A DNA stretch of 64,000 bases, from the sequence record NC_027395.1; one strand, written 5' to 3'. This document shows positions 8,993-41,327 of the stretch, piece by piece. This stretch comes from Escherichia phage vB_EcoP_SU10. The stretch's first letter is position 1; every line of letters starts with the position of its first letter. The translations under genes and the position numbers were made by a program. A model generated the notes under the pieces. It was not told the origin of the DNA, did not search any database, and saw only the letters and a list, made by a program, of their open reading frames with translations.

Positions 8993-9001
8993 TAATGTAT
9001 A
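8993..9001 (+). promoter_or_regulatory. TAATGTATA promoter-like element
   Basis: Exact 9-mer 33 nt upstream of ATG 9035; same 9-mer recurs upstream of other genes. Confidence 0.5.
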
Positions 9002-34711: not shown

Positions 34712-34970
34712 AATGCATCTCTTTATAAACGGTTTCCGTGTTCTTCTTCCAGTTAGATAAACCGGTAAGAACTCTCTGAGCAACTTCATCAGCTGCTCTA
34801 TTTCTTTCAATCTCTAACTCTTGCTGGTGCTTCTCTTTGTCCAGATTACTGCTGTCTGTTTGATATTCGTTAAACTTCATACCACCAAAGAATACAAGAG
34901 CTGAGAAAACGATAAACCCTAAGTTATCACTTAACGTGTTTTGCATGTTGTCTCCAACGAAAAAAGCCAC
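34596..34970 (-). CDS. i-spanin (Rz-like)
   Basis: N-terminal TM (LGFIVFSALVFFGG) then charged coiled-coil; contains Rz1-like start. Confidence 0.5.
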   Translation of the reverse strand: MAFFVGDNMQNTLSDNLGFIVFSALVFFGGMKFNEYQTDSSNLDKEKHQQELEIERNRAADEVAQRVLTGLSNWKKNTETVYKEMHYEKTKPVFYNVCASDEYVSLFNERQQQAINALTNKPKS

Positions 34971-35004
34971 CCGGAGGTGGCTAAGCTATAACAAGGAGAG
35001 TTAT

Positions 35005-35418
35005 TTATATGAATTTCTGCATACCTTTGATACGAGGGTTATCATCACCAACTCTCGATTTACAGTAAGCGATAAAAGATTCAGTATTGAGGTTATCTTT
35101 TTGGGAACCCCACTGAAGGTTGTCTGCTCTATTGTTGCTCGGATTATCATCCAGATGCATAACAACAGCGTTAGGAAAAGGTTTCTCACCGTGAAAAGTC
35201 TCACACACTAAGATATGAATCCTTTTCTTAAACTTTCTTTTCTTGTTTACAAACACCATTCTTCCATCTTTCTCTCTATATCCGCTATATGGTTTTCCTA
35301 CGAAAAGCCTAACTCCACCATTATTCATTATGGCTGTGAAAGGCTTAATCTTAACTCTACCAAAAGATGATACGGAAAGGAAATCATAATAGGGGTGATC
35401 TTTCCAGACTTCTTCCAC
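35005..35418 (-). CDS. HNH homing endonuclease
   Basis: SSFGRV...HILVCETFHG...VVMHLDDNPSNNRADNLQWG motifs. Confidence 0.75.
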   Translation of the reverse strand: MEEVWKDHPYYDFLSVSSFGRVKIKPFTAIMNNGGVRLFVGKPYSGYREKDGRMVFVNKKRKFKKRIHILVCETFHGEKPFPNAVVMHLDDNPSNNRADNLQWGSQKDNLNTESFIAYCKSRVGDDNPRIKGMQKFI

Positions 35419-35427
35419 TATTTATCC

Positions 35428-36174
35428 TCAAAATGGGCTATCGTTGTCGTCTTCGTAAGTAGAAGCAGGCTCTTTATCAATCGTAGGGATTGAAGGGGTA
35501 GCTTCTTTCTGTTCTGTTTCAGAAGCACGAGTAATTTCACGACCAGCCAGAGGCATGTTCTTAGCGTCATTAGCTTGAGTAAGCAGGTTGCGCTGGAACG
35601 GGAACATCAGTTGATAGGATGCTACGTTCTCATCGGTTTCAGCATATGGTTCGAAGAATACCATAGGACTACGAGCTTCACCAACTGCTGCACGATATTT
35701 GGTTGGGATTGGAGAAATGGTCTTGATGGAGTTTTTAACTTCACCAGCTTTGTTAGTGTAAGAGTTAACCAGAATGTTAACAGGCTGACCTAACAGCACA
35801 TCCTTGAACCAAGACAGATCACCTTTCAGTGCTTGAATACTTGGGTCAATCATCTTGCAAAGATCAAGAATACCAGAGTTCTTAGCTCGTGGGTTTACAT
35901 CATAACTCTTGAACTGGCAAGCCGGACGTGGTTCTAATGCCTTACCATCGGAATCTTTACCAGTAGCATCAACACCAATCAGCTCGAAAGCTAAATCCAT
36001 ACGGAAAGTCGGATTCTTAGGAGTTACTGCTTTGGTCTTCGGGTCAATCCAAGGGTCACGATTGTGAACACCCAAACCTACTACACGAACGATACGTGCT
36101 TCGTACTCACCATCAGGGATTACATCGTAGTTGGATTTACGGGAAGCAGTTGCGATAGTTGGAATCATAGACAT
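35428..36174 (-). CDS. Single-stranded DNA-binding protein (putative)
   Basis: 248 aa with acidic C-terminal tail ending DDNDSPF, like SSB tails; in replication module. Confidence 0.55.
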   Translation of the reverse strand: MSMIPTIATASRKSNYDVIPDGEYEARIVRVVGLGVHNRDPWIDPKTKAVTPKNPTFRMDLAFELIGVDATGKDSDGKALEPRPACQFKSYDVNPRAKNSGILDLCKMIDPSIQALKGDLSWFKDVLLGQPVNILVNSYTNKAGEVKNSIKTISPIPTKYRAAVGEARSPMVFFEPYAETDENVASYQLMFPFQRNLLTQANDAKNMPLAGREITRASETEQKEATPSIPTIDKEPASTYEDDNDSPF

Positions 36175-36233
36175 ATTTTAATTTCCTTATTTAATTTGAA
36201 AGATTGTTGCTCTCTTTGAGCGGTTATGTATAG

Positions 36234-36242
36234 TATACATTA
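36234..36242 (-). promoter_or_regulatory. TAATGTATA promoter-like element (minus strand) upstream of SSB gene
   Basis: Exact 9-mer on minus strand about 59 nt upstream of ATG 36174. Confidence 0.5.
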
Positions 36243-36305
36243 CGCTTATACCGATAAGAGTACTATATAATATAAGTATCTTTGGTAGTAGATATAACAC
36301 ACTAG

Positions 36306-36314
36306 TAATGTATA
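36306..36314 (+). promoter_or_regulatory. TAATGTATA element on + strand inside minus-strand intergenic region
   Basis: Exact 9-mer; no + strand ORF downstream. Confidence 0.4.
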
Positions 36315-36411
36315 TATTGTATAGCTGATAAAGTTATTGCAGGCTTGTATATTGGGCAATTCACAGAATCCCTTGCAAGTACCGAAGGGCAGGAGACACC
36401 TGCGAGATAAA

Positions 36412-36475
36412 AATAGAGAATTAAGGAATCCTTGATTTAGGTTGTAGGGACTCCTAGGGACTTTGATTCTCTATT
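36412..36475. repeat. Inverted repeat enclosing tandem TAGGGACT direct repeats
   Basis: AATAGAGAAT (36412-36421) pairs with ATTCTCTATT (36466-36475); TAGGGACT at 36445 and 36455. Confidence 0.5.
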
Positions 36476-36720
36476 TAAAAGAATATTAATTACTTATTAC
36501 CTAAATAATTAACTAACTTACTTAAACCAAATTCAATAAGAATAGATAAAAAGATTATTCCTAAGAAAGCTAAGAAGTAAACAATATAAGTTACCATTCA
36601 AGTAAACCTTTAAAGTTAGATTGTTCTACTATCCTCTGATAACGAAGATTAGAATCAGCTTGTTTCTTTAACATCTCATTATATTGATCTCTGATAGAGT
36701 CTTTATGTACTACAGGTTCT

Positions 36721-37224
36721 TTAAATAACGAGATCTTGTTCTTTTCTTCTTTCATCAAAGACCTTCCTAATCTCTTGCAGAGAAACAGCTTTATAGTTAA
36801 TTTGCTCCATTGATGTACAGAAATATCTCCAATCATCAATTACATGGTTGTGTGTATGAGCATAAATGTTAAACTTTCCTCTCATCTCATCAGTGTGAAT
36901 AGGGATATGAGTTACCCAAAACTCTTTATATTTATAATCACCAGAGATTCTACGGAAGACTTTCATCATATCAGGGAGAAGTTCTAACCTGTCATGGTTC
37001 CCTAAGACTAGATGCTTCTCTCCTTTTACTTCAGCGATGATATCAAGGGCATACTTTTCAAACACCCAATCACCGGTAAAGAAGATTTTGTCTCGCTTAG
37101 TTACATGATCAAATGCAGCTAGAATTGCTTTGTCATGTTCTTCGATGGTTTTAAATTGCTTACGAAAACTACAGATGTTGCGATGACCTAAGTGACCATC
37201 TCCTGCAAAATAAACTTCAGCCAT
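36721..37224 (-). CDS. Calcineurin-like metallophosphoesterase
   Basis: GDGHLG, FFTGDWV and GNHD motifs. Confidence 0.75.
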   Translation of the reverse strand: MAEVYFAGDGHLGHRNICSFRKQFKTIEEHDKAILAAFDHVTKRDKIFFTGDWVFEKYALDIIAEVKGEKHLVLGNHDRLELLPDMMKVFRRISGDYKYKEFWVTHIPIHTDEMRGKFNIYAHTHNHVIDDWRYFCTSMEQINYKAVSLQEIRKVFDERRKEQDLVI

Positions 37225-39482: not shown

Positions 39483-41327
39483 TTAGTGTGTATGCATCCA
39501 GTTAAGTCCAATCTGACAATCAGATGCCAGAGGACATTCCATGTTCAGATACTCGCCAGCTTTCTTAACACAAAGCTCAGTGTGCTCTTTGAGTTTCTGT
39601 ACATCATTACGGTTTACTGAGAATTGACCTTCATCGTGCATATCAATTACCTTAGCACAACGAACCTTATCTTTCTCAATCCACTTGTTAAGGAACATCA
39701 TAGCATATTTCATAACAACAGCACCAGCACATTGCAGGAGTGTGTTAAGGGCTTTATGAACCATAACCTTACCAGTGGCATCCCGTCTCATTGTAATCTT
39801 ACGACCATCAACTCCAATCAAGTATCCTTGAGCAGCTTTCTCTGTCATACGATCAATGAGGATTGCAATACATGGGTTCTCTGCTAAGAAACGTGCTCGC
39901 ATCACTGAACCTTCGTCAGCCCCACCACCTACAATTGAACCAAGCTTAGCATCGCCAGCACCGTAGTTGAATGCATAGATAAACGTTTTAGCGTTGTCAC
40001 GAGTAGGAAGACCAGCAAGTTTCTGGTTATGGGAGTGGATATCACCTTCAAGGAGAATATCACGATACATAATAGCAGAAGCTAAACCACGTTCTGCCAG
40101 AGCTTTCTTAGCTGGGTTGTTCTCTTCTATTGCCTCAGCAAGCATATCCCTACACTCTTTAATGAGGTAGTGAGCTAGCATACGAAGTTCAAGTCCAGAA
40201 CCATCATACCCTAAGAACACTTCTTTACCAGCGGGTATGTAATATTTGTAAGCACCTATAGGTTTGTCTTTCTTCCCCGGCTTACCTTTCTCGTAAATTA
40301 CGTTAGTACCTTTTCGTATATAACAACCATCAGGAACAACGTTAGTAATAACGAAAGGACGAGAGTGATCACTGTCTGAGTTATAGTCAGACTCAAACAA
40401 ACTGCGACACTCGTGACCAAACAGACCACGGGAGGGAATATTAACCACGATACGATGTTTGAATCGAAAAGTCGGCGTAGCGCAGCTGTTAGCTTCTGCC
40501 GAAAGTTTACCATCTTCGCGTTCCTTTGCTATAAGTCCACTGATAAGACCTAGCCTGTGAGCCGCTACAACGCGTCTCTTAAGCAAACTTCCGACACTCC
40601 CTAGCTCACCCCCTAACCCTTCTTCAAGAGTCTCCTCGAGGTTTGTAGGAGCTGTAGGCCACTTGTTTGATGTGGCTAGTGCTTTCTTAATCTCATCAAA
40701 CGTTACAGGATTACGGCGATTAGGGTTCAACCCCAAACCAAATACGTAAGCCTTCATGTAATTCTTAGTCTTAAACCTGAAATGCTTTTCTAAGAACTTC
40801 TTAATATCAGCGTCAACCATCTCGGCTGTCTGCTTCTGCTTAGCATTGCCTCGCATCCAAGCAGTATACCATGCTTGGTATGTTCCATACTTTCTCATAT
40901 CTTTCTTAATTTCGAAAGTATTCCAAGGCTTCTTAGACACGTTAAACTCTGGAGGAAGAAAGCCCTCATCCATAAGAGCTTCTTTAACTCGTGCATCTTT
41001 CGATGGGTCAAAGTCTACGTATTCAACACAGGTGAAAGCTCCACCAATATCTTCTCTCTTCAGCCCAACCCTATCACAATAGGCTTGAGGCCACTTCTGT
41101 AAAGCTCCAGACTTCTTAAACGGCTTCATGTAAGTAGAGCCGTCTAATCTCATCTTAGGTAAGAGAGGAATCAACTCTCTGTCAATATTAACAATAATCT
41201 CTTTAAGGAGGTGAACATACCACCGAGCATTTCTTCGGTTGAAACTCACTCCGTGCTTTGCTTGCTTAGAGATTATATCAGCGACAGTCATCTCTGTCAA
41301 AAATGGAAGAGCGTCCGGGTTGCTCAC
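39483..41327 (-). CDS. DNA polymerase, family A (polymerase domain only)
   Basis: Motif A LGYDGSGLELR, motif B RDNAKTFIYAFNYGAG, motif C MHDEGQ. Confidence 0.85.
   Translation of the reverse strand: MSNPDALPFLTEMTVADIISKQAKHGVSFNRRNARWYVHLLKEIIVNIDRELIPLLPKMRLDGSTYMKPFKKSGALQKWPQAYCDRVGLKREDIGGAFTCVEYVDFDPSKDARVKEALMDEGFLPPEFNVSKKPWNTFEIKKDMRKYGTYQAWYTAWMRGNAKQKQTAEMVDADIKKFLEKHFRFKTKNYMKAYVFGLGLNPNRRNPVTFDEIKKALATSNKWPTAPTNLEETLEEGLGGELGSVGSLLKRRVVAAHRLGLISGLIAKEREDGKLSAEANSCATPTFRFKHRIVVNIPSRGLFGHECRSLFESDYNSDSDHSRPFVITNVVPDGCYIRKGTNVIYEKGKPGKKDKPIGAYKYYIPAGKEVFLGYDGSGLELRMLAHYLIKECRDMLAEAIEENNPAKKALAERGLASAIMYRDILLEGDIHSHNQKLAGLPTRDNAKTFIYAFNYGAGDAKLGSIVGGGADEGSVMRARFLAENPCIAILIDRMTEKAAQGYLIGVDGRKITMRRDATGKVMVHKALNTLLQCAGAVVMKYAMMFLNKWIEKDKVRCAKVIDMHDEGQFSVNRNDVQKLKEHTELCVKKAGEYLNMECPLASDCQIGLNWMHTH

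Follow-up and report, generated by a model that had tools for sequence, protein, structure and literature searches.

A predicted seventh gp36 promoter and a candidate structured non-coding RNA in the gene 40-41 spacer of phiEco32-like phages

The DNA analyzed in this work was a 64,000-nucleotide stretch of Escherichia phage vB_EcoP_SU10 (NC_027395.1), referred to below as the window, and the analysis was centered on a non-coding gap between its homologues of phiEco32 genes 40 and 41 (phi32_40 and phi32_41). The window belongs to a phiEco32-like coliphage (Kuravirus, subfamily Gordonclarkvirinae), and 57 phage records in GenBank, most of them Kuravirus, match a 1.9-kb query around the gap at 95-99% identity. 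phiEco32 serves as a model for phages that redirect host RNA polymerase via their own sigma factor, gp36, and a dual regulator, gp79. To judge from its sequence, the gene 40-41 spacer probably contains an undescribed seventh gp36 promoter together with a real gene for a non-coding RNA of four hairpins, the latter also probably undescribed so far.

Extent and composition of the spacer

Genes are oriented on the plus strand to the left of ~30 kb and on the minus strand in the rest of the window. A sequence-only reading of this DNA had placed a 415-bp, AT-rich non-coding span to the right of the gene 40 homologue. This span was too long: positions 36490-36597 are occupied by a 35-amino-acid gene, and the gap is therefore 315 bp (36175-36489). 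Nor is the gap uniformly AT-rich, as 36321-36477 has a GC content of 40% and lies between flanks of 26% and 20%. The same segment has a plus-strand excess of G over C (skew +0.21) opposite to that of its surroundings, and the adjoining stretch at 36478-36600 is 80% AT. The skew of the window switches at ~30 kb, where gene orientation flips, with no local inflection at the gap. The palindrome ATGTATA-G-TATACAT is present at 36226-36240, as had been reported, and plus-strand TTATGTATA was confirmed at 36224-36232; this plus-strand half is not retained in relatives, SU7 and TH34 among them, so the palindrome itself looks incidental.

Promoters for gp36 in the spacer

In published work, TAATGTATA is the consensus of the promoters that E. 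coli RNA polymerase uses when it carries the phage sigma factor gp36 (PMC4281155, PMC4331800, PMC8948821). Six such promoters have been reported, upstream of genes 6, 13, 26, 40, 58 and 68 (PMC4331800, PMC8948821), and transcription from them starts 6-8 nt downstream of the motif (PMC4331800, PMC4281155, PMC8948821). Exact copies of TAATGTATA were tenfold enriched in the window (5 copies in 64 kb against 0.49 expected, a number reached in 0 of 100 shuffles), and copies with one mismatch were at background (18 against 18.3 expected). The two exact copies in the spacer, one on each strand, were confirmed. The minus-strand copy had been read as a promoter directed at the left-hand gene, correctly, and since the published promoter list places P40 upstream of gene 40 (PMC4331800), it is P40; this portion of the finding is already known. 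Copies fitting the other five promoters lie at 1485 (one mismatch), 8993, 25627, 43026 and 47195 (one mismatch). The P40 motif is invariant in 19 aligned GenBank relatives and reads TAATGTATT or TAATGTACT in three distant homologues from Logan.

The plus-strand copy is preceded by the 14-mer TTGGTAGTAGATAT, which occurs exactly twice in the 64 kb, here and in the -35 region of P68 (47214-47227), and at both sites the distance from this block to the -10 block is 10 nt. In the P68 open complex, as solved by cryo-electron microscopy, gp36 contacts A-14, A-13, T-12 and G-11, and it contacts G-37 and A-34 through its C-terminal domain; mutation of these bases abolishes or strongly reduces transcription (PMC12276001). 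When the plus-strand site was placed in the P68 register, all six contacted bases were found to be present (-37G, -34A, -14A, -13A, -12T and -11G). P13 and P26 carry a different block, AAGACCTA, in that register, and the new site is therefore assigned to the P68 class. P40 differs from the new promoter in having a -35 region unlike the P68 type, with A at -37. By P68 numbering, in which AATGTA begins at -14, the predicted +1 of the rightward promoter is at 36321.

Both blocks of the rightward promoter are conserved. In 19 GenBank relatives, which span three genera, the -10 block does not vary, and in the more distant Logan homologues (n=5) it occurs as a one-mismatch variant, AATGTATT or AATGAATA. 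The -35 block reads TGGTAGTAGATA in 17 of the 19 GenBank relatives and TGGTAGTATATC in ES17 and EcM-vB1; in the 24 tabulated distinct homologues, TGGTAGTA was found in 20 and TGGTAGTG in 3 more, and TGGTAG was found in all except L032, a truncated sequence with TGGAAG. Among the GenBank relatives, the 11 nt that separate the two blocks occur in at least six different sequences at constant length, and in the distant Logan homologues this spacer is one nucleotide shorter. Of 25 distinct homologues, 24 retain both blocks on either side of a variable sequence, and such invariant blocks around a rewritten spacer are the signature of selection on a two-part promoter.

Two further observations were made on the arrangement of these promoters. 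The late promoters at 8993 and 25627 on the plus strand (P13 and P26 by position) have AAGACCTA in common at about -37 to -30, and P68 and the new promoter have GGTAGTAGATAT in common in the -35 region; this suggests that gp36 -35 elements are class-specific, with one block for P13/P26 and another for P68 and the new promoter. In ES17 and EcM-vB1, a 146-nt insertion with an annotated 47-amino-acid open reading frame (ORF) lies between P40 and the new promoter (L016 482-625 and L017 486-629, respectively), so the two divergent promoters need not adjoin.

Coding capacity and conservation of the downstream sequence

The plus strand has no AUG within the predicted RNA (36321-36477) or in the ~120 nt beyond it. 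The conserved block carries indels of 1, 2 and 3 nt and one domain swap that adds 24-28 nt, and therefore contains no ORF. One candidate, a 32-amino-acid ORF with a TTG start at 36337-36435, was considered and rejected on account of frame-breaking indels and the domain swap in relatives. Compared with KBNP1711, positions 36350-36500 are 94-98% identical, against 70-90% for the neighboring coding sequence. In phages without genes 41-42, where a phosphoesterase gene adjoins, homology stops just past 36479; as it ends right after the last hairpin of the predicted RNA (P4, see below) whatever gene comes next, the conserved unit is the promoter plus ~155 nt.

The RNA was found in every E. coli Gordonclarkvirinae genome examined, and it is still present in Paul, XT18, Bas86/87, EK010 and ECBP2 despite the lack of gene 41 in these phages. 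Assembled contigs in which gp40 is 70-81% identical also hold the element (L033, L034, L037-L040); in contigs where the identity of gp40 falls to 69% or below (L024-26, L043-45) it was absent, both by eye and by a covariance model. This model of the core, which covers 36384-36480 of the window at 121.6 bits, confirmed the division into carriers and non-carriers. A pattern scan of metagenomes gave just near-identical copies and two chance matches, and IMG/VR gave nothing new. Several relatives without the RNA have a different conserved element, GGAAGCATCTAGCAAAGCTAGCATATCAAAGCTAAGCTAAGCTATATGCTT, in the corresponding position ahead of their gene 40 homologue (L024 at ~2380-2450; also L025, L026, L044 and L045); this element includes four AAGCTA repeats and an AAGCAT/ATGCTT inverted repeat.

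A search of the 64 kb against Rfam 15 at the gathering score gave no match, and a permissive search (E<=10) of 36150-36650 gave noise only (E 2.7 and 6.1). ARAGORN found no tRNA or tmRNA in the window, and a blastn search with the RNA found no match in 5,426 E. coli genomes.

Secondary structure of the predicted RNA

A structure model was built from 24 distinct homologue sequences and comprises four hairpins, P1 to P4, whose coordinates are given in Table 1. P1 is a hairpin of 5-7 bp that begins at the predicted first nucleotide. Its nine variants have 97.8% of cells paired, with changes on both sides in 4 of the 6 pairs; the covariation score observed was reached in 0 of 500 shuffles, and registers slid along the sequence came nowhere near it. 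Three P1 variants, including that of the window, contain a G-U pair, whose minus-strand counterpart would be a C.A mismatch, and the RNA strand is therefore the plus strand.

The P2 slot holds four unrelated sequence types (A-D) of 33-68 nt, whose end nucleotides always pair, as G-C in 14, C-G in 5 and U-A in 4. L034 and L037 differ within P2 solely at the two closing-pair positions, and the inner helices also compensate (UCGUC/GGCGA versus UCCUU/AGGGA; CUG/CAG versus CCG/CGG). The palindrome CTTGCAAG, which had been listed among the features of the gap, is present at 36363-36370, although it is confined to one of the four P2 versions. P3 is 100% paired in 15 distinct cores, with A or C at loop position 3, and in L033 it reads GCUGG/CCAGC, a double-sided change from A-U to U-A. 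A long-range helix closing P2 (UUGCAGG/CCUGCGA), seen in some minimum free energy (MFE) folds, was rejected, as the L033 change breaks it and keeps the local P3.

P4 contains the inverted repeat described in the sequence-only reading, which was confirmed and is longer than claimed (36411-36424 and 36463-36476; 14 nt, 93% complementary). Its outer helix, AGAGAAUU.../...GAUUCUCU, is invariant, with indels confined to the bulge and the apical loop, and three A-U pairs at its base are lost in distant copies. P4 also houses the two tandem copies of TAGGGACT (36445-36452 and 36455-36462). Both copies are where they had been reported, although their number is at chance (2 against 1.9 expected in the window) and only their adjacency is notable.

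Table 1. Features of the gene 40-41 spacer and its flanking genes, in window coordinates
Feature	Coordinates	Strand	Basis
Gene 40 homologue (phi32_40), 248 amino acids; left neighbor, driven by P40	35428-36174	-	ORF
Small hairpin GCUC-loop-GAGC near 5' end of gene 40 leader	36209-36221	-	Invariant in 19 close relatives
-10-like element TAATGTATA of P40	36234-36242	-	Exact motif; predicted start ~36227
-35 block TTGGTAGTAGATAT of rightward promoter	36282-36295	+	Identical to P68 -35 region
-10-like element TAATGTATA of rightward promoter	36306-36314	+	Exact motif
Predicted +1 and 5' hairpin P1, AUAGCU-GAUAA-AGUUAU	36321-36337	+	P68 numbering, covariation
Linker UGCA	36338-36341	+	Invariant in 24/24 distinct homologues
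Variable hairpin domain P2, type A here	36342-36383	+	End-pair covariation
GAAGG linker and hairpin P3 (GCAGG-AGACA-CCUGC, 36389-36403)	36384-36403	+	Pairing kept
Linker GAGAUAA and long 3' hairpin P4 (36411-36476)	36404-36476	+	MFE fold
Gene 41 homologue (phi32_41), 35-amino-acid hydrophobic protein	36490-36597	-	ORF; phrog_24970, E 2.9e-26

The two TAGGGACT copies change together: they occur as GGG/GGG, that is TAGGGACT twice at a spacing of 10, or as GG/GG, that is [G/U]AGGACT twice at a spacing of 9, and were never mixed in 27 distinct homologue sequences. This coupling may stem from two alternative ways of pairing with one UCC(U/C) strand, or just from two old lineages. It could also be taken to mean that the pair, set one helical turn apart, and the inverted repeat form a DNA-level site bound by a phage protein, as an operator or initiator, a reading that we regard as highly improbable. 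There are two copies only and none elsewhere in the 64 kb, recombination between two old lineages seems a better account of the two states than many independent events, pairing of both copies with the same strand in P4 explains the coupled change equally well, and the rest of the conserved block is under RNA-type constraints. The sequence-only reading had offered, as one of two alternatives, a replication origin in which the TAGGGACT repeats would be iteron-like. This was not supported, since the repeats amount to two 8-nt copies inside the 3' hairpin of the RNA, and the compensatory changes, G-U pairs and loop indels form the pattern of an RNA and not that of repeated protein-binding sites; no further repeat families beyond chance-size pairs were found in 36100-36700.

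On the minus strand, P4 is followed by an invariant run of five U, whereas its plus-strand tail is a short, variable U-run, and P4 may therefore also stop leftward transcription. At its strongest, this alternative would make the hairpin a minus-strand element only, in which P4 and UUUUU (36476 to ~36404) terminate or insulate leftward transcription from P58 and P68; gene 40 would then depend on P40, and the plus-strand promoter-like site would be idle. In its favor, the hairpin is followed on that strand by AUUUUUAUCU, the encoding A5 run at 36406-36410 is invariant in all homologues where the plus-strand tail varies, P58 and P68 are without such an element upstream, and mosaic breakpoints fall at the P4 hairpin. 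We nevertheless consider it improbable. A leftward stop leaves unexplained an exact P68-type -35 and -10 at fixed spacing across a rewritten spacer and a covarying P1 exactly at the predicted plus-strand start; it turns the G-U pairs into C.A mismatches; and a terminator has no need of the invariant 44-nt interior. The AU-rich stem and an overly large loop also kept the pattern scan from calling a terminator at this site. The minus-strand terminator and the plus-strand RNA can be compatible, as a bidirectional terminator. Taken on their own, the minus-strand terminator and the DNA operator explain less than an RNA gene does.

Proposed transcription unit and its support

The following scheme is proposed for the spacer. 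Two back-to-back promoters would be used there by E. coli RNA polymerase with gp36. The leftward one is the known middle promoter P40, which drives gene 40 and the genes that follow. The rightward one, a near copy of the middle promoter P68, is predicted to fire in the middle phase of infection and to start transcription at ~36321, giving a non-coding RNA of ~155 nt that would fold into P1, a replaceable P2, P3 and P4 and would most likely end at or just past P4, near 36477. The second suggestion of the sequence-only reading had been a short non-coding RNA with rightward transcription from 36306 and an end near 36476, and it is this suggestion that promoter anatomy, conservation and base-pair covariation support. 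The anatomy of the promoter, its conservation and that of the downstream block, the lack of coding capacity, the covariation of P1 to P3 and the strand are features of the aligned sequences themselves; promoter firing, the precise position of each RNA end and the role of the RNA are put forward as predictions.

Several points weigh against the proposal. The homologues are closely related, and the changes seen among them therefore represent few independent events. A pattern scan of 35900-36900 on both strands found no canonical terminator, which makes the 3' end of the RNA a guess, and the plus-strand U-run after P4 is short and variable (UAUUU here, UUUU in L034 and L037). The folding z-score is modest, at -2.1 for the plus strand versus -1.7 for the minus strand. 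P4 is without covariation support because there is almost no variation in it, and its inner fold is ambiguous, as a small AAGG/CCUU hairpin and a continuous irregular stem fit all variants equally. One of seven metagenome contigs (L046; ERZ1034915 NODE-75) has a G-to-A change in the -10 block, TAATATATA, by which -11G is lost and downstream of which the RNA sequence is intact; either a natural down-mutation or a mistake in the assembly might account for this. Finally, the rightward site is not among the six gp36 promoters counted in publications (PMC4331800, PMC8948821) that came after the primary phiEco32 papers (PMC3275717, PMC2587145), from the same and from other groups. In the literature other than those primary papers, a search turned up no publication that deals with the transcriptome or a non-coding RNA of a Kuravirus.

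Function of the RNA

Exact complementary k-mers between the RNA and phage messages were at the shuffled expectation (k=10, 11 against 9.8; k=11, 1 against 2.9). This absence of excess complementarity counts against a simple base-pairing mechanism, and we do not think that the RNA regulates phage messages simply as an antisense or base-pairing molecule. The near-invariance of the 3' half across genera and the lack of evident base-pairing targets for the RNA favor recognition by a partner. We tentatively suggest, as a possibility short of an even chance, that the molecule works through its fold, with a protein or another conserved partner recognizing the invariant 3' half (P3, linker and P4). 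A role as primer or regulator of phage DNA replication, in which the alternative TAGGGACT pairings in P4 might serve as a switch, appears unlikely; a decoy RNA that sequesters a protein, set against a host factor, is a reading as open as that one.

The replication role can be stated more specifically as a transcription-primed origin, in which the rightward gp36 transcript would prime leading-strand synthesis in the AT-rich DNA to its right, staying hybridized or being processed, with the RNA structure serving primer formation. In T4 and T7, origins combine a phage-specific promoter with an AT-rich unwinding element downstream of it, and ColE1 RNA II depends on a defined fold. Here a middle-class promoter opposes all neighboring genes inside a block of DNA-metabolism genes and adjoins a probable single-stranded DNA-binding protein (SSB) gene, the sense strand of the RNA is G-rich (skew +0.21) with several GGG runs, and the 80% AT stretch (36478-36600) comes next. 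A T4- or T7-type origin would have a phage-specific promoter, AT-rich DNA after it and initiation of DNA synthesis there; the spacer has a predicted promoter and then 80% AT DNA, which in relatives either codes for protein or varies. This right flank shows no conservation, being coding sequence of gene 41 here and another sequence and gene in Paul-type phages. There are also no iterons, the two 8-nt copies not exceeding chance; the skew has no local inflection, its switch being at ~30 kb; and the near-invariant 90-nt core of the RNA exceeds the needs of T4- or T7-type origins. On balance, we judge such an origin to be doubtful.

Neighboring genes

The left neighbor had been labeled an SSB gene, and this label is plausible, although its support is weak. 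One GenBank record (PQ863255) annotates gp40 as a single-stranded DNA-binding protein, and its C-terminus, ...YEDDNDSPF, is an acidic tail with a terminal Phe. gp40 had no Pfam match and no PDB match by sequence or profile. In a confident AlphaFold2 model (predicted local distance difference test score 81.7), the top Foldseek matches were SSB, PriB, RPA and PrgE, mostly with the oligonucleotide/oligosaccharide-binding (OB) fold and at weak E-values of 1e-3 to 0.1. It is plausible from this model that gp40 is an OB-fold single-stranded DNA-binding protein. In distant relatives (L024-L026, L032-L034, L037, L040), the arms of the gene 40 leader hairpin, read by eye, have changed yet can still pair, as GUUC/GAAC, GUCC/GGAC, GUUCA/UGAAC or UGUCCA/UGGACA. 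By analogy with T4 gene 32, this hairpin could be a stabilizer or an autoregulatory operator of the SSB-like gene. The start of the gene 41 homologue overlaps the stop of the gene upstream of it.

Three other features were noted on the minus strand. An HNH endonuclease gene (HNH_3 and NUMOD4; 35005-35418) lies between the homologues of genes 39 and 40 and is 0% aligned in ECBP2 and KBNP1711, and is therefore a mobile insertion. Just 3' of it, at 34965-34982, the sequence AGCCACC-TCCG-GGTGGCT forms a hairpin of canonical terminator-like type, with TTTTTT directly after it. At 41272-41300 there is a sigma-70 promoter that matches the consensus perfectly (TTGACA, 17 nt, TATAAT, with TG; 12/12); it lies within the first 55 nt of the DNA polymerase ORF (39483-41327) and is co-directional with that gene.

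Comparison with known systems and significance

Until now, the transcription map of phiEco32 has been taken to comprise six gp36 promoters, all of them before protein genes. If the proposed scheme is true, a seventh, backward-facing promoter would add a non-coding product to the gp36 program. The RNA is more conserved than the flanking protein genes in its neighborhood and therefore probably matters for infection, and many of the phages that carry it are under development for therapy. It is a candidate for a replication-origin RNA of these phages or for a host-interaction RNA, and were the replication reading true, this would be the first mapped origin of the phiEco32 group.

Among phage RNAs, lambda OOP, the P4 CI RNA, the T4 species 1/2 RNAs and the phi29 pRNA are likewise short non-coding RNAs made from phage promoters, with functions that reside in hairpins. 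The predicted RNA has no sequence or Rfam relationship to any of them. OOP overlaps its target gene in antisense, whereas the new RNA does not; phi29 is a prolate podovirus, like the phiEco32 group, and nothing ties the new RNA to packaging. The resemblance to T4 ori(uvsY) and ori(34) and to the primary origin of T7 lies in a phage-specific promoter followed by non-coding and AT-rich DNA in a block of replication genes, and that to the ColE1 RNA II primer lies in a structured RNA. The spacer differs from these origins in having no conserved unwinding element and in an RNA core conserved far beyond the needs of such origins.

The closest counterpart is P68 (Pavlova et al. 2012; PMC12276001), with which the new promoter has in common TTGGTAGTAGATAT, the distance from it to the AATGTA core, and -37G, -34A, -14A, -13A, -12T and -11G. 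It differs from P68 in that it opposes every surrounding gene, has no ORF after it and is active by prediction. If it fires as proposed, it would provide a second natural P68-class template for structural and kinetic work.

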